Shown here: positions 6,973 to 63,823 of the stretch, in pieces | How the letters are laid out: each line of letters opens with the position of its first letter | Position numbering within the stretch: the stretch's first letter is position 1 | NCBI GenBank assembly: GCA_050950505.1 | Contig: JBMNHS010000001.1 | Location: forward strand, 960,001-1,024,000 | Origin: Candidatus Methanomethylophilaceae archaeon | Lineage (GTDB): Archaea; Thermoplasmatota; Thermoplasmata; Methanomassiliicoccales; Methanomethylophilaceae | DNA length: 64,000 nt | Direction of reading: 5' to 3' | Notes under the pieces: model-generated | The model's database searches: none | What the model saw: only the letters and a program-made list of their open reading frames with translations | What the model was told of the DNA's origin: nothing | Program-made: the position numbers and the translations under genes

Positions 6973-8019
6973 TTGAAAATGACTTCAAAGGAAAGGTCGT
7001 TGGCAGTTTTCAGAGGGGAATTGCCTGACCGTGCCCCGGTGTGTGATTTTGACAATACGTCCATGTTGTCCCATTATGGATATGTACTGAACGATTGCAG
7101 AGCCAACTCATCAGTGAGCAATGAAATAATGACAAAATGGGCAAAGGATTCGATGTCCGATCTCGTATTTGGACCGATAGAATCCAAAGGTATATTTTTG
7201 GATATTCCGGGGCTGGAGGTTAAGTTACCGGAAAACAACCAAGGTTCGCTCAAGAATGTGTACTTTAATTCTATCGAAGAGGTTGAAACAAAGGATTTAC
7301 CTAACCCTCTGGACGAAAAAGAGACTCCGAAATTTCATGAATATGTGGTAAACATGTTAAAATCCCAATGGGAAACGTTGAAAGACGTCTCGTCTCCTGC
7401 ATGGTCCGAGGGAACGTTGACCACAACCGGATTCCTTTACGGTGCGGAAACGCTTCTGATGGACATGCTTCTTGAACCGAACAATGCCATAAAAGTGATT
7501 TCAAAATGTGCCGCATATTCAGAAAAATTGGTCAGAGCCCAACTTGAACGTTTTGATGCGGATTATGTGATTTACACGGACCCCGTTGCGTCTGCGGATA
7601 TGATTGACGATGTAATGTTCCGCAAATACAATCTGAATCCTCTACGCACAAACATAACCGGCTGGAAGAGAGACTTCGGTGTCAATGCAATGCTTCACAT
7701 ATGCGGGGATACCACGCCGATGTTGAAGGACTTGGTTGAAACGGGTGCGAGAGCTGTCAGTTTGGATCACAAAGTAGATTTGGCCGAAGCCAGAAGAATC
7801 CTGGGCAAGGATGAGGTAATCGTCGGAAATATAGATCCTGTCAGAATTCTGATGAAAGGTTCTCCGGAAGAAGTCTATGCCGCATCCGAAAAATGTTTCA
7901 ATGATGCCGGAAAAGACGGAAATTTTGTTTTCGCCGCAGGTTGTGCTGTGCCGATAGGAACATCGTTGGAGAATATACGTCAGTTTGCAATGGTTTCCAA
8001 GAACAACGCGTACAACTGA
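6973..8019 (+). CDS. UroD/MtaA-family protein, probable methylcobamide:CoM methyltransferase homolog
   Basis: GELPDRAPV start, DPVAS, HICG Zn ligands, GNIDPV and C-terminal AGC; TTG start. Confidence 0.75.
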   Translation: MKMTSKERSLAVFRGELPDRAPVCDFDNTSMLSHYGYVLNDCRANSSVSNEIMTKWAKDSMSDLVFGPIESKGIFLDIPGLEVKLPENNQGSLKNVYFNSIEEVETKDLPNPLDEKETPKFHEYVVNMLKSQWETLKDVSSPAWSEGTLTTTGFLYGAETLLMDMLLEPNNAIKVISKCAAYSEKLVRAQLERFDADYVIYTDPVASADMIDDVMFRKYNLNPLRTNITGWKRDFGVNAMLHICGDTTPMLKDLVETGARAVSLDHKVDLAEARRILGKDEVIVGNIDPVRILMKGSPEEVYAASEKCFNDAGKDGNFVFAAGCAVPIGTSLENIRQFAMVSKNNAYN

Positions 8020-16568: not shown

Positions 16569-16646
16569 GGACGGGTGGCCTAGTCAGGATATGGCAGCAG
16601 CCTCCTAAGCTGCAGGCCGAGGGTTCGAATCCCTCCCCGTTCGCCA
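16569..16646 (+). tRNA. tRNA-Arg(CCT), CCA encoded
   Basis: Acceptor stem GGACGGG/CCCGTTC; anticodon arm GCAGC-CTCCTAA-GCTGC; GGTTCGAATCC. Confidence 0.95.
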
Positions 16647-16675
16647 TTCACAACCCGGAACGTACCCGTTTCGGA

Positions 16676-17956
16676 TTATTCTTTGCCGAATATTTCATCC
16701 AACAGATACATTGTGCCTGATATGCCGTAAATGGGACGCGGCAGAAATCCGATTTTTGCAAGGCTCGGATACCCTATGTCCACTCCTTTGTAACAACGGT
16801 CGGACAGTTCCAGCATCTCTGCCGTATGTCCGTCCGCGAATACAAAATCAATCTTTTCGGGCAGCGGATCCGAACGCCAGGCGTTCTCGGCACCTATGTC
16901 CCTGAGAAAACTTCGGATTTTTGCGGCGGTGTCTTCATCGGTGCCGGGATTGGGCGTCAGTGACGCGGGAGCCATTCCAAGATATCCGAACAGCCATTTT
17001 GTCAGCGGAAGAAGCACCGATCCGTCCGCCGTTGCGGCGAAATCGTTGCCTTTGACTTTGTTCGTGTACAGGGTGCCTTTTATACGTTTGAAGACCCGGA
17101 CTTTGCGGTCGTTGATGAGGTTTTTCACTCTGTCGGCATTTCTGCCGGTTTTCGAGGCGACGGTTTCAATCCATCCTTCGGTGGCATCGAATCCCACGGG
17201 GGAGCCTCCATCGAACCGTATCGAAGGTATTCCGTATTTTTCCTCGTAATATTCTGCGGTTCTTGCGCAGTATTCGTTGCTGACAATCACATTGTATTCC
17301 GCTGAAACGGATTTTTCTATGTCCTCGCGTCCGCAACCCGCCCCGGGGGACGATACGACTTCCAACCCCGTCATTTCCAACAGATTCTTCAAATCTTCAA
17401 ACGCACTTTCCCAATCGTTGCTGGTTATCGGAAGACCCAGTATATTCACTGTTCCCGGAATGGTATCTTTCTTTTTGGGATCCATCCATTGAATCATTCT
17501 CCGTACGGTATGATCGTATCCCGAGGAAAACGGTTCGGAAATCAAAGACTCTTCAACTGCCATGGCCTTATCGGAACATCCCGCGAGCTCAATGGCATCG
17601 GTTATGTTGTCTCCGATGAGCGCGGCTCCCGGTGATTTGATGAACACGTTGAAAACATCATCATCCGCGCACAGGATGGGAAGGCATTCCTCTATCTTGT
17701 CAATGGAACCGTGAATGTAATCGTCCTCGTCCATGTAGGTGCAAGGTATTCTCGGCTGGCCGAAGAAAAAAGGAAGGGAATATTTCTCGTAATCTCCCGG
17801 TCCGGCTTTTGAATAATATTTGGAAGCCGAGAAAGAATGGTATCCTCTGCAGCCGCCGGGACCATGGAGCACTGCCCTGCCGTCCCTGAAACTTTCCACG
17901 GCCATGATTGCTCCGGTGAAACCGTCGGGAAGTACCGTCATTCCTCCAACCTCCAT
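16676..17956 (-). CDS. Nitrogenase component-1-like oxidoreductase subunit
   Basis: PDGFTGA, LHGPGGCR, CTYMDEDDYIHG, LIGDNI, VNILG and PVGFDATEGW motifs; overlaps the end of the NifH-fusion gene. Confidence 0.8.
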   Translation of the reverse strand: MEVGGMTVLPDGFTGAIMAVESFRDGRAVLHGPGGCRGYHSFSASKYYSKAGPGDYEKYSLPFFFGQPRIPCTYMDEDDYIHGSIDKIEECLPILCADDDVFNVFIKSPGAALIGDNITDAIELAGCSDKAMAVEESLISEPFSSGYDHTVRRMIQWMDPKKKDTIPGTVNILGLPITSNDWESAFEDLKNLLEMTGLEVVSSPGAGCGREDIEKSVSAEYNVIVSNEYCARTAEYYEEKYGIPSIRFDGGSPVGFDATEGWIETVASKTGRNADRVKNLINDRKVRVFKRIKGTLYTNKVKGNDFAATADGSVLLPLTKWLFGYLGMAPASLTPNPGTDEDTAAKIRSFLRDIGAENAWRSDPLPEKIDFVFADGHTAEMLELSDRCYKGVDIGYPSLAKIGFLPRPIYGISGTMYLLDEIFGKE

Positions 17957-20097
17957 CCTTCCACCGCCGGGACCAGCAGCATATTCGCAAGTTTGCGTCC
18001 GAACTTCAAAACCCCGTCCAGTCCAACGTCGGGTCTGCTGTAACTCATTATTTTGGCATCAAGGGACGTCAGACCGCTGTCAGTTAGAATGAGGTCGGGT
18101 TTAAACTTGTCAACGTCCGACTTCAAATCCAGTATGTCGTAATCTTCGGCATAGGGAATTCCCAATCCGTCATATCTCGGATCGAGACCCTCTTTCCGTT
18201 CGTGTCTCGGCCCCATGCCTATTTTGACGATTTCCACATCCAAGTCCGACAGTATTTCCAAAAGCCAGAACATGTCCGGGGTGAATCTGTTCTCGATGAT
18301 GACGCGTTTCCCTTTCAGCTTTTTCTTCAGCCTTTCCACTTCAGAAAGATATTTTCTTTCCCCCTGTTTGCAAACTTCTTCGGCTTTGTTTTCTATGCCG
18401 AAAAGATTTCCTATCTTTTTATGGAATTCTTTGTAACTTCTGAGTCCGACGGGCAGCGTCTCTTTTTCGACCCGCAGACCGGTTTTGGACTCGAAGAGAC
18501 GGACTATGCTCTTCGATTCGGATTCATCGGAAGCGGCGAAGGTAAATTTCCCTTTCTTTATGTTCTTCATGGAATCCATGGATGTTTCATACATGAATCT
18601 GCAATTTATCCGTATTCCGAGTTCGGAGAACAAATCGGCGGTGCTTTTATCCGGAAGACGTCCCCGTCTGAAGAGATATCTTTCGGCCACGGTGTTTACC
18701 GTCATGTCCTCGGAAATCACGTCATTATCCACGATGTCGAGCATAGCCTCGGCGGATGCGATGTACCCTTCACCCATGTCCCCGGTAATGTTTCCGTCCG
18801 CTTCGATGATTCTGAAATAAAGTTCAGGGTATTCGTTGCTTACGGCGTTCACGACATCCATCGCATTGTCTCCGATTATTCCCGAAGCGCAGGTCGTCAC
18901 AATAAAGAAACTCTTATGTCCCTCCAGTATCAAATCCCGTATCTTCTGTTCAAGGGATCCCGCCCCTCCGAACACCGATATGGTGTCATCCATTTCGGTG
19001 GAGTGCACGTTTGAAGACCGGAAATCCGTGCCGTGTCCTCTCTTGATTTCGGCAATGACCTTCAAAGTGTACATTATATGGGCGCAGCTTCTGGGCCCGT
19101 GAACAATAATGACGGCATCGGTGACGGACATACATCCGTACACGGCCCCGACGGCGGCACAATAGTTGATTATCTTTTTCTTGGTGGTTGTTTTTTTCCC
19201 GGTTGTCGTTTTCATGCAGGCAAGACAGCCTTCCGGCAACAGATTCGGCATTCCGCGGTTTCCGAGGACGCGTTCCCCTTTGGCTATCCTGCCCATTTCT
19301 GCATCGTCAAGCGGATAAGAGCCCAGGAGTTCGGTTTCACCGTTTTTTATACTCAGTATGTGTGACGATATCTTCTCAAACTCTTTTGCGGAATCGGAAT
19401 CGGGATAAAGTTCCGACACGGTCTTTCCCGCAGATTCCGCCTCTGCGAAATATTCACTTCTGGGAATGCGGGCGACAATCGGCAATCCCACGGCTTCGGC
19501 GAACCTTTCCACCATGTCATATTCGTTCTCCATTCCTCTGTGGTTCAGTATTATACCGGCGACTCTCGGAGTCCCCTTGTCAAAATTTCTTATCCCTTTC
19601 AGTATGTTGTTGGCGGCGTAGACCGACATGAATTCCCCGGAAGTGACCAGATAGACGCCGTCCGCATATTCGTTTCTCAAAGGTACGGCGAACCCGCCGC
19701 AAACCACATCGCCGAGGACATCGTATATTTTTACATCTAAATCCAAACCCTCCACGCCCAGATTCTTAAGGGTTTCGAATGTGCTGAGTATTCCTCTTCC
19801 CGCGCAGCCTATGCCCGGTTCCGGTCCGCCGGCTTCCACGCACCGTATGCCCCTCACGCCGTTAAGCACTATGTCCTCAAGATGTCTGTCGTACGGCGGA
19901 GTCTTTCTCATATAGTCGAGGACAGTCGTCTGCTCGTTTCCGTCCAAAAGTAGCCGTGTGGAATCATGTTTCGGATCGCATCCGATTTGGAGTACTTTCT
20001 TTCCCATTCCTGCCAGTATATAGGATATGTTGGCGGACACCGTGGATTTGCCTATGCCGCCTTTGCCGTAAACGGCAATCTGAAGGGCTCCGTTCAT
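17938..20097 (-). CDS. Nitrogenase-like fusion: NifH-type Fe protein plus component-1 (NifD/E-like) domain
   Basis: YGKGGIGKST, GCDPKHDST, GGPEPGIGCAGRG and DVLGDVVCGGF; then YCAAVGA, HGPRSC and TTCASGIIGD. Confidence 0.88.
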   Translation of the reverse strand: MNGALQIAVYGKGGIGKSTVSANISYILAGMGKKVLQIGCDPKHDSTRLLLDGNEQTTVLDYMRKTPPYDRHLEDIVLNGVRGIRCVEAGGPEPGIGCAGRGILSTFETLKNLGVEGLDLDVKIYDVLGDVVCGGFAVPLRNEYADGVYLVTSGEFMSVYAANNILKGIRNFDKGTPRVAGIILNHRGMENEYDMVERFAEAVGLPIVARIPRSEYFAEAESAGKTVSELYPDSDSAKEFEKISSHILSIKNGETELLGSYPLDDAEMGRIAKGERVLGNRGMPNLLPEGCLACMKTTTGKKTTTKKKIINYCAAVGAVYGCMSVTDAVIIVHGPRSCAHIMYTLKVIAEIKRGHGTDFRSSNVHSTEMDDTISVFGGAGSLEQKIRDLILEGHKSFFIVTTCASGIIGDNAMDVVNAVSNEYPELYFRIIEADGNITGDMGEGYIASAEAMLDIVDNDVISEDMTVNTVAERYLFRRGRLPDKSTADLFSELGIRINCRFMYETSMDSMKNIKKGKFTFAASDESESKSIVRLFESKTGLRVEKETLPVGLRSYKEFHKKIGNLFGIENKAEEVCKQGERKYLSEVERLKKKLKGKRVIIENRFTPDMFWLLEILSDLDVEIVKIGMGPRHERKEGLDPRYDGLGIPYAEDYDILDLKSDVDKFKPDLILTDSGLTSLDAKIMSYSRPDVGLDGVLKFGRKLANMLLVPAVEGWRLEE

Positions 20098-20582
20098 ATG
20101 GTGGAATATACATCCAATTTAAATAAAAGGCTTGGAATTTTTAGGCTTGTAGGGGAGTATTGGGAGCATCAGTGTTTTATGCCAAGCAATTTAAAAATTT
20201 CTCTCTTTTCGGTCACGATGCACAGATTAATTTTCTCTTTGCAAATATGAAACATTCCGAGTGCTGTGACAAGCCGGGAGCCACGTGCATGTTTTATTTT
20301 CAAAAGACTTGGTTCGACAATCATTGCAGACGTATCAATATCTTCAAACATTACACAGACGGGCCTAAAATTGTTTTTAATCCGAACAGGAGTTTTTTCT
20401 GTTAACGATTCAACATACGGATTGTTCTTTCCTGTGTCGTCGATATTTTCGACCGGTGGGTGCCTGAACGAATATTATATTATTCTTTTTACGTTTTTTA
20501 TATTTGATATAAATACAGATGAACATTTATAGTTAGATGACCATAAATGGGTAAGGCAACGCCTTACAAATTTGGTGATGTT

Positions 20583-22781
20583 ATGAGGTTAAAATCTCTG
20601 TTGGCGGCATTGATTGCTGTAGCGATGATTTCCGTACCCTTTGCGGCAGTCGTCGGAGTACAGGATGTTTATGCCGATGATGGTGAAGACGCAGGTGTCA
20701 AAGTCGGAGATGCCTGGGGATTCAGCGCGACTTTGGATTCGTTTGATGATTTTGAAGAATTCGGAGAATCTTTGGAGGAGATACTCGGAGAATTCTTCGG
20801 TGAAGAGGGTGAAGAATTCTCACTTTTGGATTTTATCATGGATATCTTAAGTCCTGATGAATATGCCGATGAAGACGACGGCGAAGGAGAAGGTTCCGAT
20901 TTTGATGAACTTCTCAGTGAAGAGGATTTGGAAATCATTTTGGATATCTTTGAAAAGTTGGCTACACTTAAGTTCAATATCGTCATTGCAGGAATCATTG
21001 AAGTCACACAGGCTGACGAAAACGGATACACCGTGTCTGTCGATGCAGGCGTCAGCGCTGATGTTTCATTGAAAGTGGACATCAACAGTCTCGAAAAGAT
21101 GTATGAAGAGATAGCGGAAATGATTCCCGAAGAAGGCGAAGGAGACTACAGCGAAATCTGGGAGACGATTGAACACATTCTTGAAATGGCACCCGACTAC
21201 ATCGGAGACGGCAAACTGTTTGTCAAACTCGATCTCCTGCTCGCTTTGATGTTGTCCGGGACTGTCATGTATGATTCCGATTGGGAATTAAAGAACGCAG
21301 ACATTTCCACCGATCTTGTCGGTACGGTCGGACTTGAAACGAATGTGGATATAGTCGGAACAATCTTTGAATTTATATTCAATGAAGATGATTCCTCGTT
21401 ACCCACGTCCCTGCTCCAATATTTGGATGACGGAGAAAGGGATGTCTACAGCGTCACGGTCGGATTATCCTTCGATAATACCGTGTATACCGTCGGTGAT
21501 TCCGTTCTGGATACTGTCGTTATGGGCATAACTGTCGATGCGGAAGCACCGGTATCCTTGCTTGTTGCGCTTAAATTTATACTCGAGATTCCGAATGAAA
21601 TATACCGGACGGGATCGAATCTGCAATTTAGTTTGGCTGATGCAAATGTAAGTTATGAGTACGGTTATGATGAAGCAATTCCTTTGCTCTATATCGTCGA
21701 TGAAGCCATCTATCTAACAGTTATCAAAGCTGATGAGGCGGATGATGCTGACGGAGACAAGTCTGTACTTTTCCTGGAAGGACCGGATAAGACTGCCGTT
21801 CGCAACGATTTCAAGAAAGTCAAAAACACATACAACGGCATGGTTTCCAAGGTTGGTCCTTCCAATGTAACATTATATGGTCTGGAATATGACGAAGAAG
21901 AGGACGAATTCGAATTTGTCGTGTCGGAGAAAATTGAGGTTCCCTTTAACAAGAGGATGACGAATCTCCCGGTCCTGGATAATCTTGTTCTCGGAGAAGA
22001 AGATGAGTATGTTGAGTACAAGCATGTCGGATGGGGGTGCATCAATACGGAACCCGGAGACGTCGTGGAATACGACGACTACGAGGATATGACAATCTGG
22101 AATCCTGCCTGGAAAGTAAAGGGAGACCTAAAACTGTATCCGATATATGCATACGTATACGAAGATTTAGAAGATACGCTCGGTTACTTGAGTTCCATTT
22201 TCTACTTCGATCTTGTTTATGTCAAAGTAGATATCAACGAACTTGATGATGTCGGCTTGGATTTCGAATCTGGAGCACTTCTGTATATCGACGTGTACGA
22301 TGGAGACAAGTTCCTTTACACATGGAAGATAGGCAGTCCCAATGGAATATGGGGTGGAGAGATAACCAACTTCAGGATTGGAGTTTTGAATGAAGGAGAT
22401 CTTTTCAATGAAGCCAAGAAAGAACTTGACGGATCCGTTCTGTTCCTGAACTTCAGTTCATCGGGAACGACACCGTTTGGGACCACCGTGAGCTACAACG
22501 TTGAAGGAGTGTTCAGCGACGGCACGGAACTGTATGTGTATCTTGTGCTCGAAAACGAGGAAGGAAAATTCCTGGGATTGGAACCCATGGGTATTTACGT
22601 TGTTGACGGCAACACGGTTCTGTTCAATGTACCTCACTGTTCCGTATACGCATTGAGCGCAATACCCCAGTCCTCTTCATCCGATGGCGGGTTGTCCACG
22701 AGTGTATACGCAATAGTTGCCGTGGTCGCAATCCTTCTGGTTGCGGGTGTGGCGTACGTCATGTTCAGCAGGAGGGGCTGA
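20583..22781 (+). CDS. Highly acidic secreted surface protein with C-terminal TM anchor (paralog A)
   Basis: GGTGAT RBS before MRLKSLLAA signal peptide; D/E-rich; VPHCSVYAL, Ser-rich linker, TM helix, SRRG. Confidence 0.8.
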   Translation: MRLKSLLAALIAVAMISVPFAAVVGVQDVYADDGEDAGVKVGDAWGFSATLDSFDDFEEFGESLEEILGEFFGEEGEEFSLLDFIMDILSPDEYADEDDGEGEGSDFDELLSEEDLEIILDIFEKLATLKFNIVIAGIIEVTQADENGYTVSVDAGVSADVSLKVDINSLEKMYEEIAEMIPEEGEGDYSEIWETIEHILEMAPDYIGDGKLFVKLDLLLALMLSGTVMYDSDWELKNADISTDLVGTVGLETNVDIVGTIFEFIFNEDDSSLPTSLLQYLDDGERDVYSVTVGLSFDNTVYTVGDSVLDTVVMGITVDAEAPVSLLVALKFILEIPNEIYRTGSNLQFSLADANVSYEYGYDEAIPLLYIVDEAIYLTVIKADEADDADGDKSVLFLEGPDKTAVRNDFKKVKNTYNGMVSKVGPSNVTLYGLEYDEEEDEFEFVVSEKIEVPFNKRMTNLPVLDNLVLGEEDEYVEYKHVGWGCINTEPGDVVEYDDYEDMTIWNPAWKVKGDLKLYPIYAYVYEDLEDTLGYLSSIFYFDLVYVKVDINELDDVGLDFESGALLYIDVYDGDKFLYTWKIGSPNGIWGGEITNFRIGVLNEGDLFNEAKKELDGSVLFLNFSSSGTTPFGTTVSYNVEGVFSDGTELYVYLVLENEEGKFLGLEPMGIYVVDGNTVLFNVPHCSVYALSAIPQSSSSDGGLSTSVYAIVAVVAILLVAGVAYVMFSRRG

Positions 22782-22795
22782 AATAAACTCTAAAA

Positions 22796-22826
22796 CCGGG
22801 GCAATTCCCCGGTAATTATTTTTTTA
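22796..22826 (+). terminator. Hairpin plus T-tract terminator, nearly repeated after paralog B (about 25540-25571)
   Basis: ACCGGGG-CAATT-CCCCGGT followed by a T-run. Confidence 0.65.
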
Positions 22827-23328
22827 TTATGATGCTTTTGCGTCATAGAGCGGACGTTCGTACGCTATGAAATATGACCGTCACTGACGTATGCGTAAGA
22901 TTGTGACACGGTATTTTTGATTATTGGTATCGTCAATCACCCTGTGATAAAAATTTCCATTTTCGGTTTCATGTGTTATGGAATTTTCGTTGTCCGTGAC
23001 GGTGTAAAACGCAACGTTAATTCAAGCATCTCAAATCCCTGCATATCAATGACGAATGTTTCTTTTGAATCCTATCTTAAAATATCTGAATTATGCCTAA
23101 TTTAAAACGGTTATCTTATGATTATTTCATAAACGGTTCAACTTGGAATGATGCCGTCATACGCATGGACGCGATCGGTTTGCGTTGACACACATATTAT
23201 ATAGTATTGTTTTTTAATATTATTATATTGCGAAAAGAATATAAATTAGCATTTATAGTTAAATAGCGTTAACACAATAGGGTAATGCCTTACAAAATTT
23301 GGAATGTCTTATGAGGTTTGGTGATGTT

Positions 23329-25525
23329 ATGAGGTTAAAATCTCTGTTGGCGGCATTGATTGCTGTAGCGATGATTTCCGTACCCTTTGCGGCAGTCGTC
23401 GGAGTACAGGATGTTTATGCCGATGAAAGTGAAGAGTTAGACGTCAAAGTCGGAGATGCCTGGGGATTCAGCGCGACTTTGAATTCGTTTGATGATTTTG
23501 AAGAATTCGGAGAATCTTTGGAGGATATACTCGGTGAATTATTCGGCGAAGGTTTCACTGTTACAGATCTTCTGGAAATGATTCTCGGTTCCGGTGACGA
23601 TGATGACGATGACGAAGACGATTTTGATTTCAGCAGTCTTTTCGATATCGGCGAAGATGACTTGAAAATTCTTTTGGAAATCTTTAATGCGTTGGAAATA
23701 ATTGATTTCAATATCGTCATCGCAGGAATCATTGAAGTCATACAGGCTGACGAAACTGGATACGCAATTGCTGTCGATGCAGGCGTCAGTGCTGAGGTTT
23801 CATTGAACATCGAAGAGAATCTTGTCGATATACTCGGTACCGTAGAGGATTTGGCTCCTCACGAATACGATGATGACAGTATCTGGAATAAAATCATTTC
23901 ACTTCTTGGGGAAGACAGTTTCTTCGGAACGGGCGATTTGCTTGTCGATCTCAATCTCTCGCTCGCTTTGATGTTATCCGGAATAATCAAGCTCGATCCC
24001 GATTGGAATCTAAAGCACGTAGAATTTTCTGTTGACATCGTCGGCACGGCTAGCCTTGAAACCAATATAGACCTGTACGGAACATTGGTTGGAATAATTG
24101 ACGCCTTTAATAACCTTGGAGATCCCGATTACACGATGCCCACTGTTGAATATTTGGATGACGGTACAGACGTTTTCAGTTTCGAGATTAGATACTCCAC
24201 CGATACTGCCACATATTTTGGTAAAGATATCATAAACAGATACTAATGTCATGGGCTTCACCATTGATGTGACTGCACCGGAGGCAATACTTTCGATTTT
24301 ATCCCTTATTACGGGCAAATTGTGTGATGAGGGAGAAACATCCCTGGAATTCAGTACCGCAAACGTGGAAACCCAGTACGGTGTCCAAGATTCTTCGGAT
24401 AGTTCCGAACTCGAATTTATTCGCTCTATAGTGAGCCTCGGTAATGAGTCCGGTCTTTTCCTGGAAGACACGGGAAAGACTGCCGTTCGCAACGATTTCA
24501 GGAAAGTCGAAGACGCATATAGTGGTCTGGTTTCCGAGTTCGGCCCCTGCAAAGTGACCTTTTGTGACATTGCGTATGATGAAGATACCCCGGATGAACC
24601 GGATTTCGTTGTGTTGAGTGAAATTGATGTTCCCTTTAATGGAAAAATTACAGGTTTTCCCGTTTTAGATAATGTCACTTATGACGAGGGAGCCACAATG
24701 TACAAGCATGTCGGATGGGGGTATGTTCCAGTTGAATACAGGGATTGTGATTACGGAGAGTATTATAATTTCATGATAAACTGGAATCCTGCCTGGAAAG
24801 TAAAGGGAGATGTGAATCTGTACCCCATATTCGCAAAGATACACACAAGTCTGGCTGATGCGCTCGATGAGTTAGGGAATGATTATGAGCCGTTCCATTA
24901 TGCCAAGGTTGACATCAGCAATTTGACAGATGATGGCGAATATCTCTTTGATGCATACGGAACTCTGTTTGTTGAAGTGTACGATGGCAACAAGTACCTT
25001 TACACCTGGATTATATCGGGCGACGAATCGGACGAGGACGATGGATTGATAACCAACTTCGGAATCAACACTCTGGAAGAAGGGAGTCTTTTCAATGACG
25101 CCATGGGCGAATTTGACGGATCCGTTCTGTTTCTGAACTTCAGTTCGTCAGGACCGACGCCTTCGGGAACTGCCGTGAGCTACAACGTCGAAGGTGTGTT
25201 TGAAGACGGTATGGAAGTGTATGTGTATCTGGTGCTTGAAGACGATGACGGTGCCTTCCTTGGATTGAAACTTATGGGTGTTTACGTCGTCGACGGCAAC
25301 GCGGTTCTGTTTAACGTGCCTCATTGTTCCGTATACGCACTGAACGCAATACCTCAGCCCTCTGACCCGTCCAACGACGGTCCGTCGACCGATGACAATC
25401 CGCCCTCCGGTGAAGGTTCATCATCCGATGGCGGTTTGTCCACGAACGTATACATGATAGTCGCTGTGGCCGCAATCCTTCTGGTTGCGGGTGTGGCGTA
25501 CGTCATGTTCAGCAGGAGGGGCTGA
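23329..25525 (+). pseudogene. Paralog B of the acidic surface protein, split by a one-base frameshift near 24234-24236
   Basis: ORFs 23329-24246 and 24251-25525 match consecutive parts of paralog A; removing one A from ATAAACA restores GKDIITDTNVMG (paralog A: GDSVLDTVVMG). Confidence 0.8.
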
Positions 25526-26120: not shown

Positions 26121-26369
26121 ATGTCCGATGAGAGTTACAAAAAATGCAGAACCTGCCGTTTCTGCGATCACGCCGACAGCAAGTGGATTTGTCGGTTCAC
26201 CGGCGAAAACAACGATTCCGACGGAACCTGTAATAAGTACAGGCCCGGAATCTGTGAAACATGCAACTCTTATTACATCGAAGACGGAAAAGAAATGTGC
26301 GGTATGAATTCCCGGGAAACCTTCGGACTGGATGTCTGTTCCATGTACGATCCCGGATATTCAGGATGA
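26121..26369 (+). CDS. Small Cys-rich protein with two tandem C-x2-C-x11-C-x12-C-x2-Y-x-PG repeats
   Basis: Identical Cys spacing in both halves of an 82-aa ORF. Confidence 0.75.
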   Translation: MSDESYKKCRTCRFCDHADSKWICRFTGENNDSDGTCNKYRPGICETCNSYYIEDGKEMCGMNSRETFGLDVCSMYDPGYSG

Positions 26370-27347
26370 ACTTTTTTCGGCTTTGCGTCTGTTCAGGGAG
26401 TTTTTGACGCTGGATTTGGCATTGCTTCTTCCCATAAGGACATTCTTTGCCGTTTCCGGAATTCCAAGCATGACTATATTGTCCGTAACTCCGACGCAGG
26501 ATTCCATTTCTTTTCTGACCTGCGAATAGGAATTTTGCAGATTGCCGATCACGGAATTCATGATACCGGTTATCTCGTAGAGATTTTCATTGACGAAATC
26601 ATCTCTGTTTTTGAATTTACCGGAACATCGACCTGAGTTGCATACCGCATCTCCGTAAGCGGCGTCAAGTCCGCCGCGGTCTTCCATAAAATCGGAATAC
26701 CGTGCCAAAAACGGATTGTAGGTTCCGTCCAGATAATCATCGTTCAGATCGTCAACGGCATCCATAATGTACACTATGGAAGTCAAATGTTCAAACAGAT
26801 CCGCGGTGTGTTCGCTGAAACCTCCGCCGGATATGTCATCGAGAGGACGGGAAAGTGTTCTGCCGAATTCGGTGCCCATTCTGACGGCGTCGGTACATCC
26901 GTCCAATTCCATCTCCCTGAGCCTTCTGTATCCTTCGCCGACTATTCCGTCATATTCGGGATACAGCTCTTCGGCTTTCCGAATGGCTCGGTTCATGGCC
27001 AAAGAAATAAGTTTGGTTCTCGGGGAAGGTTTGTCGTAATCGTCGTCAACTAATTCCCATTTGGTAAGCAACACGGTATACCCCGCCATTTTTTGCATAA
27101 GATCCGATTTGGCATAAGGACCTCTGAAAACGCAAAAACTCGTTTTCGTGGATTCGAAATCCGTTATATCGCCGTATATGGAATTCAGCACTATGGTGTT
27201 GAATGTCATGTCGTAGTTCACGGCGGCCGTGGATATCAGGCCGAAGGAATCCCTCAGTCCGTGACAGGCTTCACAGTAATACCTACGGTAATCTATGAGG
27301 TCGTTGGCTGACAAACGGGGATACATAGGCAGTGTATATCCAAACAT
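26361..27347 (-). CDS. DUF5685-like protein with two Asp-rich motifs
   Basis: MFGY start, YRRYYCEACHGL, NYDMTF, ELVDDDYD and YIMDAVDDLNDD..GTYNPF. Confidence 0.72.
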   Translation of the reverse strand: MFGYTLPMYPRLSANDLIDYRRYYCEACHGLRDSFGLISTAAVNYDMTFNTIVLNSIYGDITDFESTKTSFCVFRGPYAKSDLMQKMAGYTVLLTKWELVDDDYDKPSPRTKLISLAMNRAIRKAEELYPEYDGIVGEGYRRLREMELDGCTDAVRMGTEFGRTLSRPLDDISGGGFSEHTADLFEHLTSIVYIMDAVDDLNDDYLDGTYNPFLARYSDFMEDRGGLDAAYGDAVCNSGRCSGKFKNRDDFVNENLYEITGIMNSVIGNLQNSYSQVRKEMESCVGVTDNIVMLGIPETAKNVLMGRSNAKSSVKNSLNRRKAEKSSS

Positions 27348-28959: not shown

Positions 28960-29886
28960 TTATTTTTTCATGCTTCCGATCTGAGTTATGTCGTAAGGTG
29001 TCACCTGGTACACATAGTAGTTCAGCCAGTTGGTCATGAACAGTGTGGCATGACCCCTCCATCTCATGATGGGGTCGTTTCTGGGATCGTTGTCGGGGAA
29101 ATAATTCTGGGGTATTTCAGGATTCATTCCTTTTTCCATATCCCGTTCATATTCATACGCCAGTGTTTTTCTGTCATACTCCATGTGTCCGGTGACGAAA
29201 ACCTGGTTAGATTCCGAAACAACAACGGAAACACCGGATTCGGGTGCATGTGCCATTATGTGCAGGTGGGGATTTTTCACTATGTCTTCCGCTCTGACTT
29301 CCGTCCATCTTGAGTGGGGCATAAGATATTCGTCATCGAACCCGCTGAACAGCTGGTCGTTGTAGGGCAACACTTTGACGGGGAAAATCCCCGTGAGTTT
29401 CTTTTCAAGGGGGTACTTCGGTATGTCGTAAAGATGATACAGCCCGGCCTGTGCACCCCAGCATATGAACAGGGTGGAAACAACATTGTCGACGGACCAA
29501 TCCATGATTTCTTTAAGCTCGTCCCAATAATCGACTTCTTCGAAAGGAATGTTTTCCACGGGTGCGCCCGTTATGATCATACCGTCAAAGTTTCTGTGTC
29601 TCACATCATCGAAATCGATGTAAAAACGGTCAAGATATTCTTTGGGGGTATTTTTTGATTCATGGGTAGCGGCCCTGAGCAGGAAAATGTTGACCTGCAG
29701 AGGGCTGTTGCTCAGCAGACGCAGAATCTGCGTCTCCGTCTCCACCTTCGTGGGCATGAGGTTCATGATAAGAATGTCCAACGGTCTGATGTCCTGTGTA
29801 ACGGCACGTTTCTCTGTCATGATGAAAACATTTTCAGATTCCAGCGTGGAAGCGGCCGGCAGGTTATCAGGGATGTTGATCGGCAT
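28960..29886 (-). CDS. metA: Homoserine O-acyltransferase, MetA family (acetyl type predicted)
   Basis: [41 protein letters not shown] and TGHMEY. Confidence 0.93.
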
Positions 29887-29889
29887 TTC

Positions 29890-30792
29890 TCAATACCTTC
29901 CATAAATTCCCGTACTGAGGTATTTTTCCCCTCCGTCGGGCAGAATTGCTAGTATCTTCCTGCTTTTATTATGTTTGCTGAATTCCACTGCGGCAAACAC
30001 TGCGGCCCCGGAGGATATTCCGGCAAAGATGCCTTCTTCGCGGGCAAGCCTGACGGTCATTTTCTCGGCGTTCTCCGAAGAGACCGTCACCACACCGTGC
30101 AACAATCCGACATCAAGGCATTCCGGAATGAAATTAGCTCCGATTCCCTGTATTCCGTGAGGTCCCGCGGTACCTCCCGACAACAAAGGACTTTCTTCGG
30201 GCTCCACGCCGATCACTTTGGTTTTTGCGCCGGCATCGGCGAAAGACTGAGCGATTCCGGTTGCGGTGCCTCCCGTACCCACGCCGGCGAACACGAAATC
30301 CAAGTCGGGAATGTCCCTCAGAATCTCCTTCCCGGTGCCGGTGCGGTGAGCCAGAGTATTGCAGGGATTCGAAAACTGTCCGGGAACGAAAGCGTTTCTT
30401 TCTTTCGCGAGCTCGTTGGCTTTGTCGACGGCGCCCTGCATGCCCTCGTCACCGGGCGTAAGAACTATTTCGGCACCGTAGGCCCTCATGTAAGCCAAAC
30501 GTTCCTCGGACATGGTGTCGGGGATGACTATGACGGTCTTGTATCCCTTGGCGGCGGCGACCATACACAAAGCGATTCCGGTGTTTCCCGAAGTGGGTTC
30601 TATTATGGTTCCGCCGGGTTTGAGCAATCCTCTCGCCTCCGCATCCGCTACCATGGATACGGCGGCACGGTCCTTGATTGAACCGCCGGGGTTGCCTTTT
30701 TCGATTTTCACATAGACGTTCCGGGAAATATTCCCCAATCTGACTATGGGAGTGTCCCCGATACATTCCAGAATGCTGTCGTACACTGCCAT
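29890..30792 (-). CDS. cysK: Cysteine synthase (O-acetylserine sulfhydrylase)
   Basis: NPGGSIKDR, EPTSGNTG, GVGTGGT, HGIQGIG, GISSGA and PDGGEKYLST. Confidence 0.93.
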   Translation of the reverse strand: MAVYDSILECIGDTPIVRLGNISRNVYVKIEKGNPGGSIKDRAAVSMVADAEARGLLKPGGTIIEPTSGNTGIALCMVAAAKGYKTVIVIPDTMSEERLAYMRAYGAEIVLTPGDEGMQGAVDKANELAKERNAFVPGQFSNPCNTLAHRTGTGKEILRDIPDLDFVFAGVGTGGTATGIAQSFADAGAKTKVIGVEPEESPLLSGGTAGPHGIQGIGANFIPECLDVGLLHGVVTVSSENAEKMTVRLAREEGIFAGISSGAAVFAAVEFSKHNKSRKILAILPDGGEKYLSTGIYGRY

Positions 30793-30829
30793 ATTTTTAC
30801 GGAATACGTATCTCAACACTTAATTGTTA

Positions 30830-60973: not shown

Positions 60974-62593
60974 TCACGCAAGTTTGAGGGTGTCGAATTT
61001 CATGACCTTTTCAGGGCAGGCGTACTGACACCTGTAGCAGGCGGTGCCGAGACAGTTCTTGGTCATCACGGTGATGGTCTTGTCTTTGGAGACGGTGAGT
61101 GCGTTCTCCGGACATTCCCTCTCGCAGGCTTTGCAGCCCGTGCAGCCGTCCATTTTGCCGACCAGATCCGTTCCGAGATCGTGCAGTATATGCAATCCTC
61201 TTTCTCCCAAATCGGCGATGTCACGTTTGGATATCCTTATGATTTTGGGCACCCCCCTCGGACGGGGTATGGTCTGTCTTCCGGTCATTTCAAGATTTTC
61301 GTTGTACGTGAACATACTCATGCCCTCTTCGCAGTGGGCGAGTTCCTGAACGTAAATGTCTTCGAAGACAGGGTCTCCGGCGAACATCACGTGGTTTGCG
61401 CGTATGTCGTTGGCGACGGACTGAAGTTCATCCAGCATTTCGGGATTCATCAACAAATCTGTGGCCAAAGCCAACGAGGTGTTTCCGTACTGATAGATGG
61501 TATTGCAGGTGGGCGGAAGCATTCCTATTTCCCTGGCTTTTATGGCATCCACATAGGTACCGGAAGCTCCGGTCATGTACATGGTTTTCAAATCATCGAA
61601 TTTGATTCCAGCATGTTCTATGAGGGTGTAGTGACCCGCCCTCATGGCACCTACGGCCTTCATTGCTTCAACAATATCTTCGGTGGTAATGTATACTCCG
61701 TCCTGCAGGTGCATTTTGCCGTCCGGAGTATGCAATTTGCTTTTTCTGAACAGTCCCGTTTGCTTGGCGACGGCAATCGCGGCTATGACTCCGGTACCCG
61801 TGATTCCTTTGGCTTTGCCGTGCATGGGTCCGTATTCATCTGCGGTTCCGAGAATGAAATCGAATTTGTCCCCGTTCTGAGGCATCAGATTTTCATCCAA
61901 AACTTTGCAAATCCATTGGAAATCATATTCAAGATCGCTTATTGCACCGGGAGCCGCCAACATTCCGTGTTTTATGGACTGACCCTCCATAGCGGGACCT
62001 GCGGCCGCAGATCCGGTATATATTTCGTCGCCGACTTTGAGAGCCATTTCCGCATTGGTTCCGTAATCGGTAACGAGGCAGGTTTCTTTCTCTTCAAGGA
62101 AACCGCTTTTGTACATCATCGCCAAAGCATCGGCACCTATTTCGTGCCGGATTGCGGGAGGCACGTAAAGTTCGGTTCCGTCGGGAACTTCGATGCCGTA
62201 TTCCACGGGATCGAAAACGCCCGCGTCACGTTTCTGTTCAACAATTCCTTTCACTCTTCTGGCGTTTTCTCCCGCAAAGGCAAGATCGTCAATAGGTATG
62301 TTTTGCGCAATCGACAATTGTATCGGATTTCCGCACAAACTCATTCTGACAACGTCCTTGAGGTCTATTCCCAAGGTTTTGATCAATTTGTTCACCGTGT
62401 CGATTGCGACACCGTGGGCCACGTCAAGTCCGACTCTTATGCTGAAGGTCAGGTGGTCCATAATGTTGGCACCCGGCAGCGGATGACATTCCGTGATGGA
62501 GGTTGAAATTATTTTTTTGTTTTTTAAATCAACTGCGTGTGCACGGAACCCGCTAGTTCCTAGGTCCAATGATATTCCGTATTCCATAGACAT
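60974..62593 (-). CDS. ramA: Methyltransferase corrinoid protein reductive activase (RamA/RamM type)
   Basis: DLGTSGFR, HPLPGANIMDHL, DYGTNAEM, GSAAAGPAMEGQ and C-terminal 2x[4Fe-4S]; start near 62593 (ORF open to 62677). Confidence 0.88.
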   Translation of the reverse strand: MSMEYGISLDLGTSGFRAHAVDLKNKKIISTSITECHPLPGANIMDHLTFSIRVGLDVAHGVAIDTVNKLIKTLGIDLKDVVRMSLCGNPIQLSIAQNIPIDDLAFAGENARRVKGIVEQKRDAGVFDPVEYGIEVPDGTELYVPPAIRHEIGADALAMMYKSGFLEEKETCLVTDYGTNAEMALKVGDEIYTGSAAAGPAMEGQSIKHGMLAAPGAISDLEYDFQWICKVLDENLMPQNGDKFDFILGTADEYGPMHGKAKGITGTGVIAAIAVAKQTGLFRKSKLHTPDGKMHLQDGVYITTEDIVEAMKAVGAMRAGHYTLIEHAGIKFDDLKTMYMTGASGTYVDAIKAREIGMLPPTCNTIYQYGNTSLALATDLLMNPEMLDELQSVANDIRANHVMFAGDPVFEDIYVQELAHCEEGMSMFTYNENLEMTGRQTIPRPRGVPKIIRISKRDIADLGERGLHILHDLGTDLVGKMDGCTGCKACERECPENALTVSKDKTITVMTKNCLGTACYRCQYACPEKVMKFDTLKLA

Positions 62594-63037
62594 ATCCCCG
62601 GTAACGCAATATTGACTCTGAAGGTTGATAATAGGTTCTATGAAAAACATCTTCGGTTCCCGTAATGGTAATTTCACGGAGGCTGAGATTTATTTTGATG
62701 AATTACGTCAAACGTAGAAAATGCCTTGAGAACTACTTTTATATACAAAGATAATACCAAATTGTAATTTTTAAAATTACAGACCTGTTAATTTCTATTA
62801 AAATAAATTTTAGAAAAAATAGTTTTGAAACGGCGCAATTCAGTTTTTAATTATTACTGGCTATGTATTCAAACACACCCCTCGTTGTTGGAATACGAAG
62901 GATCGATATTAATTTTTGAAGTTCAATTTTGACACGAACTTCTGTATCTTCACGGAGATATCATCCATCCATTATAGCCATTTTAATACCTGCAAATCGA
63001 TGAAAATACGGGTAAAAACCCAAAGGAGAAACTGAAC

Positions 63038-63823
63038 ATGTTAGACAGCAAAGGAGTAGACTTCGGCATGATTCTCAGACGGTACGACGTCGAACTCGAG
63101 GTTGAGGCCACCCCTGAGGAAATGGCAAAGAGCCTGCTTCCCAAAGACCCTATTTTCAAAAAGGTCGCGGAAGAGGTTCTGTACATGAAGTTGAAAACGG
63201 TTATTCCTACTGTAACGGAGGCACTGAAGGAGAAAGACCCTTTGAAGGTTATCAACGAAGGTCTCGTAGTGGGAATGGAAATTGTGTCAAAACTGTACTC
63301 GGAACATGTGTATTACCTGCCTGAAATAATGATGGCGGCAAAAACCATGGAAATGGGGATAGCTTTGGCAGAGAAACAGCTGGAAGGCGGAAAGATGAAG
63401 ATGAAGGCCGATGTGATCATGCACACCGCCGAAGGTGACGTGCACGACATCGGAAAGAACATTGCGGTCATCATGACCCGCGCCGCAGGTTATGAAGTCA
63501 TCGACATGGGTAAGGACGTACCCGTCGACGATGTTGTGGCCAAGACGGTAGAAGTCAAACCGCTCTTCGTATCGGGTACCGCATTGATGACAACCACAAT
63601 GTCTGCATTCCCGAGGATTGCCGCGAAATACGTGGAGAAGGGACTCAAGACCCCCTTCATGGGTTGCGGCGGTGCTGTGAACAGGGAGTATTCCAACTCT
63701 TACGACCTGGGAATATATTCGGATAAAGCGTCTCAGACCCCGCTCATCGCGGAAAAGCTGCTCTCCGGATATGACTGGAAGAAGGTCAGGGAAGAGTGGG
63801 ACAGCATTGTGAGAGGTGAGTGA
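63038..63823 (+). CDS. mtaC: Methanol corrinoid protein
   Basis: EGDVHDIGKNI B12-binding motif, GTALMTTTM and GGAVN; directly upstream of mtaB. Confidence 0.9.
   Translation: MLDSKGVDFGMILRRYDVELEVEATPEEMAKSLLPKDPIFKKVAEEVLYMKLKTVIPTVTEALKEKDPLKVINEGLVVGMEIVSKLYSEHVYYLPEIMMAAKTMEMGIALAEKQLEGGKMKMKADVIMHTAEGDVHDIGKNIAVIMTRAAGYEVIDMGKDVPVDDVVAKTVEVKPLFVSGTALMTTTMSAFPRIAAKYVEKGLKTPFMGCGGAVNREYSNSYDLGIYSDKASQTPLIAEKLLSGYDWKKVREEWDSIVRGE

Follow-up and report, generated by a model that had tools for sequence, protein, structure and literature searches.

We analysed a 64,000-nucleotide stretch of the genome of a Candidatus Methanomethylophilaceae archaeon (assembly GCA_050950505.1, contig JBMNHS010000001.1, positions 960,001 to 1,024,000), hereafter the window. 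The assembly comprises 1.33 Mb in 2 contigs and is 99.6% complete. On one strand of the window lie two overlapping open reading frames (ORFs) that an original prediction, made from the sequence of the window, had described as a 719-aa fusion of NifH with a NifD/E-like domain, followed by its partner subunit. ORF coordinates and Pfam matches agree with this description (Table 1), and we refer to the two genes as HD and K. All of the motifs that the prediction named are present, namely the P-loop, the cluster Cys residues, the CLAC/Lys-Thr-rich linker and the YCA, RSC and TTC contexts of the fusion, as well as HGPGGC, PDG and KSP in the partner. Nitrogenase-like families (NFLs) are a small set of ATP-driven reductases for very hard reductions, those of N2, chlorophyll rings, F430 and C-S bonds. 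HD-K is a widespread, uncharacterised variant of the nitrogenase-like reductases with a fused Fe-protein module.

Table 1. The HD-K locus and other features of the window mentioned in the text (window positions).
Feature	Position	Strand	Description
HD gene	17938..20097	-	719-aa NifH-like ATPase/[4Fe-4S] domain fused to a NifD/E-like domain; ORF and Pfam
H domain, aa 1-275	19273..20097	-	P-loop aa 11-18, switch I CDPKHDST, Cys C98 and C133
Tether, aa 276-309	19171..19272	-	Lys/Thr-rich, predicted flexible
CxxC (C291, C294) inside tether	19216..19227	-	from sequence
D domain, aa 310-719	17941..19170	-	C313, C338 and C403 at the alpha-subunit P-cluster/NB-cluster Cys positions
K gene	16676..17956	-	426-aa NifK/BchB-like partner; ORF and Pfam
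TATA-like A/T box TTTTATTTAAATT	20116..20128	-	19-31 nt upstream of the HD start codon; read from sequence
URO-D/MtaA-like methyltransferase	6973-8019
Two adhesin-like paralogues	20547-25525
Cys-rich DUF5685 protein	26361-27347
HTS/MetA	28960-29886
PALP enzyme	29890-30819
RACo/RamA-like activase and B12-binding corrinoid protein	60974-63823

In the fused protein, Fer4_NifH (PF00142) covers aa 6-251 (E 9e-91) and Oxidored_nitro (PF00148) aa 313-707 (E 2e-48), and the AlphaFold2 model contains two confident domains (mean predicted local distance difference test score (pLDDT) 83, predicted template modelling score 0.58). The H domain carries the P-loop GKGGIGKS and the cluster residues C98, within CAGRG, and C133, within VCGGF, and ends with a conserved C-terminal helix, PLDDAEMGRIAKG. 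Its P-loop, both switch regions and both cluster Cys are invariant columns across 38 sequences, and its best fold match is the M. acetivorans NifH (Z 37.6, root mean square deviation 2.0, 269 aa, 46% identity). The tether contains C291-L-A-C294 followed by KTTTGKKTTTKKK; residues 282-309 have pLDDT below 50, a flexible stretch of some 28 residues, and both the length and the composition of the tether differ between relatives. Among fused homologues C291 is kept in 98/105 and C294 in 89/105. By lineage, the CxxC occurs in 37/41 archaeal-type fused loci, 1/17 from Firmicutes and 0/4 others; it is specific to the archaeal clade. The three cluster-type Cys of the D domain, C313 (YCA), C338 (RSC) and C403 (TTC), are invariant, together with C98 and C133, in 105/105 fused homologues, and C499 is conserved among close relatives. 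Fold matches of the D domain tie at Z 26-28 between MarD (27.8), NifEN, BchN/B and NifE, and this search does not discriminate. The A/T box upstream of HD is a possible promoter of its own, with a short or absent leader.

Oxidored_nitro covers aa 13-422 of K (E 8e-38). The HD and K ORFs overlap by 19 nt if K starts at the ATG at 17956; a second ATG at 17941 gives an ATGA overlap with the TGA stop of HD, and K is predicted to be translationally coupled to HD. C36 of K, the Cys of HGPGGC, is invariant in 13/13 sequences, and D11 (PDG) and P109 (KSP) stand at the exact spacing of the other two P-cluster Cys. Compared with the PDB, the K-family profile scored highest against BchB (79 bits), followed by MarK (74) and NifK (57). 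In the profile alignment C36 falls on BchB residue 36, which we take to be the Asp ligand of the NB-cluster in dark-operative protochlorophyllide oxidoreductase (DPOR). Chlorophyllide oxidoreductase (COR) is predicted to use a Cys at this position. Residue 36 is Cys in the deposited BchB chain 3aet_B and Ala in 3aeu_B, and 3aek_B differs from both. A passage of Dos Santos et al. 2012 (PMC3464626) states that an Asp serves as ligand in DPOR.

The fusion is not an assembly artefact. Independent assemblies from four studies bridge the H-D junction with 1-20 substitutions and no gaps: a landfill-metagenome contig (X5 record 17) covers the whole 3.6-kb stretch, a wastewater contig (X7 record 28) covers 16620-20200, and two further contigs cover 16617-19693 (X13 record 3) and 17465-20200 (X2 record 16). 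Moreover, the fusion is shared by many relatives, and the suspicion that it might be an artefact absent from them can be set aside. The best 120 homologues all have both Pfam domains, with sources including Methanomassiliicoccaceae, Methanomethylophilaceae, Methanoplasma, Methanogranum and ISO4-G1. Of the 121 genomes sampled from the order, at least 43 contain a full-length fused match in one open frame, several of them with 2-5 paralogues; within the window's own genus, 2/6 genomes have it. In a tblastn sample of the order, K lay directly behind D in 20/21 loci.

We also scanned one genome per species with a 10-sequence alignment of close D domains, which recovered 582 relatives. The best 80 loci were taken further, one of which (L096) was dropped as it held no D match, leaving 79. 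H and D formed a single frame without a stop in 62/79, a stop or frame change intervened in 4, and H was out of reach in 13, through contig ends or unfused forms. K followed D in 75/79; the other 4 stop at a contig edge. The carriers are chiefly Methanomassiliicoccales/Thermoplasmata, with Bathyarchaeia, Acidobacteriota, Smithella, Syntrophobacteraceae and 19 rumen/gut Firmicutes loci besides. Against 1.84 billion cluster representatives the D profile had 288 matches at E <= 1e-30; the best 150 of these included 66 proteins of 650-999 aa with one P-loop motif and 65 of less than 500 aa without a P-loop, and one protein with two NifH domains before D (H-H-D). The H-H-D triple fusions (P0044, P0051, P0054 and P0098; ~1080-1106 aa) have two full NifH domains, each with a P-loop and both Cys, and their D domains nest in the same clade. 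Eight loci (L080, L107, L109, L111, L113, L118, L121 and L140) come from 'cleanbin' metagenome-assembled genomes labelled Bacteroidaceae, Lachnospiraceae, Ruminococcus sp., Dialister hominis and Bacteroides ovatus. These show archaeal-type identity (62-65% in the H domain) and synteny, and may be mis-binned archaeal contigs.

Phylogenetic trees were quick LG+G4 reconstructions supported by the Shimodaira-Hasegawa-like approximate likelihood ratio test (SH-aLRT) alone, with deep nodes unresolved. Reference sequences were taken from plasmids of Rhizobium and Clostridium butyricum (NifH/D/K/E/N), Nostoc (VnfD/K/E/N) and Sulfitobacter (BchL/N/B/X/Y/Z) and from the genome itself (CfbC/D); the trees covered these families only, and MarDK was compared through the PDB. 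HD-type D domains form one clade (SH-aLRT 99-100) outside Bch and Cfb, whose sister group in this reference set is NifD/NifE/VnfD (97). The K partners form a clade of their own (98-99), and the fused H domains, together with a solo NifH-like protein of the same genome, group separately from NifH and CfbC (93). The same subclades recur in the H tree and the D tree, and the fusion is therefore old. HD-K thus constitutes a fused family in which H and D share one frame, K lies directly downstream, and the D domains and the K subunits each fall in one clade. The Treponema saccharophilum plasmid pTS1 (L050, 10650-18306) carries a split NifH and two component-1 genes with two substrate-binding proteins, an 'iron ABC transporter' permease and an ATPase. 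We considered this locus as a split form of HD-K and rejected it, as its D and K sit on very long branches that fall outside the HD clade, while its H is placed with CfbC. We regard it as a different NFL, a very divergent one with the same kind of neighbours.

Which class of enzyme HD-K resembles was assessed from curated models and cluster ligands. Scores against the NCBIfam equivalogs for nifH/D/K/E, vnf, anf, bchL/N/B/X/Y/Z and CfbC/D were all far below cut-off: 308 against 394 for nifH, 68 against 654 for nifD and 18 against 427 for nifK, with CfbC the best NCBIfam match of the H domain (320 bits against 402) and CfbD at 27 against 268. From the six P-cluster Cys of nitrogenase, D keeps three and K one of three. 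No ligand of the iron-molybdenum (FeMo-co) or iron-vanadium (FeV-co) cofactor, Cys275 or His442 in A. vinelandii NifD numbering, was found in the D-domain alignments, where these positions are neither Cys nor His; the original prediction had likewise seen no clear FeMo-co motifs. The position of the VnfD cofactor Cys is Ser in HD and a non-conserved column in the family profile, and the His position is not His. These low equivalog scores, the missing cofactor ligands and the single P-cluster Cys of K bear out the earlier view of an uncharacterised ATP-driven reductase that does not fix N2.

The ligand pattern of DPOR and COR, with three Cys in the N/Y subunit and one ligand at position 36 of BchB/BchZ, does occur in HD-K. 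It supports the notion that HD-K may work like these enzymes, not that it belongs to Group V: the Bch models remain below cut-off, and in the trees HD-K branches apart from BchN/B/Y/Z and BchL/X of Sulfitobacter. Three Cys of D and one of K would make a single inter-subunit [4Fe-4S] cluster, without a P-cluster or a FeMo-co/L-cluster, and suggest an acceptor cluster of the DPOR/COR type. Membership of the methylthio-alkane reductases (MAR) does not fit, given the misfit in Cys pattern and the absence of an adjacent radical-SAM NifB-like gene in the window. Neither does membership of CfbCD, with scores below cut-off, a K subunit present and a canonical cfb cluster elsewhere in the genome. Judged by these features, HD-K is neither a nitrogenase nor, because the genome holds a separate cfbABCDE cluster, CfbCD.

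The genome holds four NifH-like and five component-1-like genes. On contig 2 lies the canonical F430 cluster of cfbC, cbiX/cfbA, a Mur-ligase-like cfbE, cfbD and cfbB, so that a separate cfbCD is present, as had been proposed as a check, which disposes of the suspicion that the window genes are the only cfbCD of this genome; the H and D domains of HD-K fall in clades apart from CfbC and CfbD. Contig 2 also carries a second HD-K (L010, 126735-134370). There the row begins with a solo NifH-like gene, continues with genes for a substrate-binding protein, a FecCD permease and an ABC ATPase, and ends with an HD of 714 aa and a K of 422 aa. The two copies share 39% identity in HD and 30% in K. The solo NifH-like protein is 62% identical to the window H domain and falls inside the fused-H clade. 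The H domain of the second HD reads CAGHG where NifH-type proteins have CAGRG.

PF00148 occurs in the genome at five places only, the two fused D domains, the two K genes and CfbD, so there is no nifEN. The prediction that neither nifB nor nifEN lies nearby held for the window; for the genome it did not extend to NifB, which is encoded on contig 1 (724850-726061; 445 bits against a curated cut-off of 344), ~234 kb from the window, in a genome with no nitrogenase. Methanogens need NifB for the L-clusters of the methyl-coenzyme M reductase (MCR) activation complex, according to the relevant passage of PMC12176620, and NifB therefore says nothing on HD-K. We weighed whether its presence points to an L-cluster enzyme and rejected this, since MCR activation explains it and the D domain has no ligand Cys. 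As for nifI, no P-II family member was detected among the scanned window ORFs of at least 110 aa, although no search aimed at nifI was made. The 1.33-Mb genome further contains 10-12 FecCD-type permease matches, several of them around a CobN/ChlD locus on contig 1 (857-877 kb), an unusually heavy investment in chelate import.

The fusion is known in print; its function is not. Dos Santos et al. 2012 (PMC3464626) mention the same architecture in Archaea, Firmicutes and Deltaproteobacteria in a passage marked 'data not shown' and removed it from their phylogeny; another passage notes NFLs beside ABC transporters. In the part of Borrel et al. 2014 that concerns it, a 'fused nifH/nifE' serves only as a table landmark in Ca. 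M. intestinalis, while 'Fusion/fission protein family identification in Archaea' (2024) lists the fusion with high confidence in Methanomassiliicoccales (cluster 443). The relevant passages of these three papers contain no analysis of function, ligands or neighbourhood of the fusion. A full-text literature search returned no paper that gives the HD-K family a function or a link to CbiZ or CobN. The text of a 2026 Chem Rev review of NFLs contains neither 'fusion', 'fused' nor 'Methanomassiliicocc'; the sections in question cover only Nfa, Cfb, MAR, isethionate reductase (ISR), DPOR/COR and uncharacterised groups. The paper on the Bathy-6 genome says nothing of its HD-K locus, and proteomics papers on methanogens grown on pyrite are not about this family.

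We then turned to the neighbourhoods of relatives. In the sample of the order (21 loci, 12 genomes), a FecCD/Peripla_BP_2 importer accompanied HD-K in 16 loci, an ABC-2 exporter in 8 and CbiZ, CobN or ChlI/D in 5. In the archaeal subset of the species scan, consisting of the 34 loci flanked by 9 kb or more, 21 had an importer, 22 an ABC-2 exporter and 10 CbiZ/CobN/ChlID. The corresponding baselines, from random 19.2-kb windows of this genome alone searched by the same detection method, were 10.8%, 2.5% and 3.6%. CbiZ lies directly upstream of HD in L068, L077, L078 and L082. Three other loci have a CbiZ-like gene and, behind it, an unfused D and then K (L080, 7853-11498; L081, 7715-11498; L100, 7620-10254), with a 4-nt overlap between CbiZ and D in L080, and the unfused D domains of all three nest within the fused archaeal clade. 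The CbiZ-like proteins of these three loci are 375-419 aa long, compared with a Pfam domain of 191 positions, and have an extra C-terminal part. On a Smithella contig a substrate-binding protein, HD, K, FecCD, an ATPase, a C-N hydrolase (amidase) and a radical-SAM protein abut or overlap in this order on one strand, so that HD-K lies inside the importer operon. An Acidobacteriota chromosome encodes, in order, CbiZ, TonB, HD, K, an ABC ATPase, an ABC-2 permease, a CobC-type phosphatase, CobU, CobT and a CobD-CobQ fusion, which is a cobamide nucleotide-loop and salvage operon. One CobN scored above the cobaltochelatase cut-off. For the importer parts the best models were BtuC, a haem/corrinoid ATPase and the IsdE/BtuF type, all below NCBIfam cut-offs.

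Taken together, these data incline us, though by little, towards HD-K as an ATP-driven reductase of a salvaged corrinoid or tetrapyrrole, in the archaeal clade directly and in the window copy by descent. The original prediction had named a tetrapyrrole or a sulfur compound as the possible substrate; the former, as a corrinoid, is the better backed by the neighbours of relatives, and the latter is reduced to a minor rival.

Several observations weigh against a corrinoid substrate. The class of transporter does not by itself name what is carried, as FecCD/Peripla_BP_2 systems also transport siderophores and haem; with 10-12 FecCD genes in the genome the importer baseline is not negligible, and related loci are non-independent samples. 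No importer was found in any of 13 well-flanked rumen Firmicutes loci. Neighbours there include an old yellow enzyme-type flavoenzyme, a PALP enzyme, a sulfite-reductase-like protein and a DraG-like hydrolase, and the Firmicutes subfamily may do something else. At the Rfam gathering threshold no riboswitch, for cobalamin or otherwise, was detected in seven loci including a bacterial one. The genome has cbi genes (L011) and appears to make corrinoids de novo, so salvage would not be obligatory. Lastly, the neighbours of the window copy itself carry no corrinoid signal, and its closest relatives, L065 and L067 (63-68% in D), have MarR and two ABC exporter halves upstream and no importers.

On one side of the window copy lie genes for a BspA/Listeria-repeat surface protein, a transglutaminase-like protein and FKBP, and on the other the two adhesin-like paralogues, DUF5685, a SPASM radical-SAM protein, MetA/HTS, the PALP enzyme and a major facilitator superfamily transporter. 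The locus of an orthologue in another genome (G034, 58% identity) holds DUF5685, HD, K, radical-SAM and HTS together, and from this gene order the window has undergone an inversion and an insertion of surface-protein genes. The window D domain shares a clade of seven rows (SH-aLRT 99) with L068 and L078, both linked to CbiZ, and the CbiZ-D-K forms adjoin this clade. Because the CbiZ-linked members of this clade keep such neighbours, the corrinoid link of the window copy would be one of descent, and the window copy has lost its corrinoid-type neighbours.

The mechanism of HD-K might run as follows. Two HD chains would pair through their H domains and, as in NifH, hold a bridging [4Fe-4S] cluster on C98 and C133 together with the ATP sites. 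ATP hydrolysis would gate one-electron transfer to the inter-subunit [4Fe-4S] cluster bound by C313, C338 and C403 of D and C36 of K, from which an organic or metallo-organic substrate in the D/K cavity would be reduced. This substrate could be a corrinoid or related tetrapyrrole delivered by a BtuFCD/FecCD-type importer and processed along with CbiZ and a CobN/ChlID chelatase, as the loci of relatives suggest. In the aerobic pathway, CobNST inserts cobalt before the cob(II)yrinic acid a,c-diamide reductase acts; the substrate of CbiZ is adenosylated cobinamide. The step might be reduction of Co(II) to Co(I), or reduction of the ring or a ligand, in cobamide salvage or remodelling, between which the data do not discriminate. 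Stoichiometry would have to be accommodated, for each D/K half-site should need an H2 dimer and an HD chain gives one H per D/K unit. Two HD-K units would share one H2 at a time or, alternatively, a solo H like that of contig 2 would complete the dimer; the H-H-D proteins would supply H2 covalently.

HD-K resembles DPOR (BchL/BchNB) and COR (BchX/BchYZ) in pairing an ATP-dependent NifH-like reductase with a heteromeric D/K-type acceptor, in having no FeMo-co and in the class-I chelatase genes found near its relatives. It differs in that the Fe protein is fused to D in HD-K only, in a fourth ligand that is Cys instead of the Asp of DPOR, in its non-phototrophic hosts and in a context of import and salvage. 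CfbCD (Group IV-B), the reductive cyclase of Ni-sirohydrochlorin a,c-diamide, occurs in the same type of organism and is described in the literature as performing simple [4Fe-4S] chemistry on a tetrapyrrole in a stable C-D complex. However, CfbD is a homodimer without a K subunit, whereas HD-K has K and its H domains form a clade separate from CfbC. MarHDK (Group IV-C) and IsrHDK (IV-F) are HDK-type NFLs like HD-K. Published passages on MAR describe a P-cluster and an [8Fe-9S-C] cluster on Cys270 and His429, with a requirement for MarB/NifB. In contrast, HD-K is without two of the three K Cys and without a Cys at the Cys270 position, no B gene is adjacent, and its Fe protein is fused where that of MAR is separate. 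A further parallel is offered by the Group VI NFL of Elusimicrobia, for which a passage of Meheust et al. 2020 (10.1101/765248) reports at most 4/6 P-cluster Cys, no link to NifB and a predicted tetrapyrrole substrate. The likeness in few P-cluster Cys and in the lack of a NifB link is one of description, not of sequence comparison; Group VI has separate subunits, and radical-SAM genes adjoin it in place of importers, CbiZ or CobN.

Among the other explanations, an organosulfur C-S bond reductase for sulfur acquisition, like methylthio-alkane or isethionate reductase, is improbable but deserves to be weighed. HTS/MetA and the PALP enzyme lie in the window 9-10 kb from HD-K and are syntenic in G034; a PALP gene comes immediately after K in one rumen Oscillospiraceae locus, and in a Paralachnospira locus a sulfite-reductase-like gene lies upstream. 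Moreover, Group IV NFLs are generally co-located with sulfur genes (a passage of PMC13753814), and ISR is predicted to use a simple [4Fe-4S] cluster (part of PMC13474568). However, there is no adjacent NifB/MarB-like gene and no Cys at the position of MarD Cys270; MetA and PALP are on the strand opposite to HD-K with unrelated genes between, and the loci of the archaeal clade, Acidobacteriota, Smithella and Bathyarchaeia are tied to importers and cob genes, not to sulfur genes.

To a similar degree we doubt that HD-K is a reductase that spends ATP to strip an imported chelate, for instance haem or a ferric siderophore of low potential, of its iron or other metal, the ligand then leaving through the ABC-2 pump. 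That importer and exporter flank HD-K in so many archaeal loci (21 and 22 of 34) would suit this activity, as would the weak matches of substrate-binding proteins and ATPases to haem (IsdE, haem ATPase) and siderophore models besides BtuF/BtuC, and the divergent split NFL in the 'iron ABC transporter' operon of Treponema pTS1. It leaves the CbiZ, CobN/ChlID and CobC/U/T/D/Q neighbours unexplained, however, and the window encodes FeoB for ferrous iron. Furthermore, we know of no precedent for an ATP-driven release of chelated iron.

Two further readings are less probable still. In a passage of PMC3464626 the fused protein is linked to NifEN, and indeed NifEN and NifE are among the top PDB matches of the D profile, NifEN ties in the fold search and the genome contains NifB. 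The cofactor site is without ligands, though, K is at least as BchB-like as NifN-like, and the remote NifB is accounted for by the MCR activation L-clusters (the passage of PMC12176620 cited above); we regard a NifEN-like role as very unlikely. We are as sceptical of a biosynthetic reductase for an endogenous modified tetrapyrrole cofactor, for example an F430 derivative, in place of salvage. This would match the enzyme class shared with CfbCD, DPOR and COR, the pairing of class-I chelatase and NFL seen for bacteriochlorophyll in the Sulfitobacter plasmid locus and the novel tetrapyrrole that Group VI NFLs are predicted to make (part of 10.1101/765248), but HD-K also occurs in non-methanogens (Acidobacteriota, Smithella and Firmicutes), is patchy within the genus (2/6 genomes) and has importers, not biosynthetic genes, as its commonest neighbours. 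Finally, an alternative, Nfa-like nitrogenase fixing N2 has NifH/D/K homology and the NifB of the genome in its favour, but can be dismissed almost entirely, as it is already contradicted by the ligand pattern, with one of three P-cluster Cys in K and no FeMo-co ligands, by the lack of nifEN and by the missing of all curated cut-offs.

Returning to corrinoid salvage, a bolder proposal, which we put forward tentatively and think rather less likely to be right than wrong, is that HD-K and H-H-D are the missing ATP-driven low-potential reductase of anaerobic cobamide salvage, supplying Co(I) for adenosylation or reducing the macrocycle to enable CbiZ/CobN-type remodelling. If this were true, the covalent tether would show that a nitrogenase-like Fe protein can cycle while permanently attached to its partner. 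Whether dissociation of the Fe protein is obligatory in the superfamily is a question on which the natural H-D and H-H-D fusions bear, and they may serve as templates for engineered single-chain systems. The family is large and common among gut, rumen and digester anaerobes; with a consistent genomic association with the uptake and remodelling of corrinoids, the B12 ecology of methanogens and syntrophs would gain a new step. The functions of the remaining NFL clades are named as the main challenge of the field in a passage of the 2026 review.

Some minor features of the window and its relatives were also recorded. The two adhesin-like paralogues between HD-K and DUF5685 have no Pfam match, and the second is split over two frames (23299-24246 and 24251-25525), probably by a frameshift. 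Within the window's subclade the Cys-rich DUF5685 protein is encoded close to HD-K, being adjacent and divergent in G034 (L024) and 3.3 kb upstream in L066. Towards the far end of the window, the RACo/RamA-like reductive activase, with ASKHA and ferredoxin domains, adjoins the B12-binding corrinoid protein. The activase, the corrinoid protein and the MtaA-like gene are the usual equipment of methylotrophic methanogenesis. In L067, a Methanomassiliicoccaceae contig, a heliorhodopsin gene (539-1312) lies a few kb from the HD-K operon.

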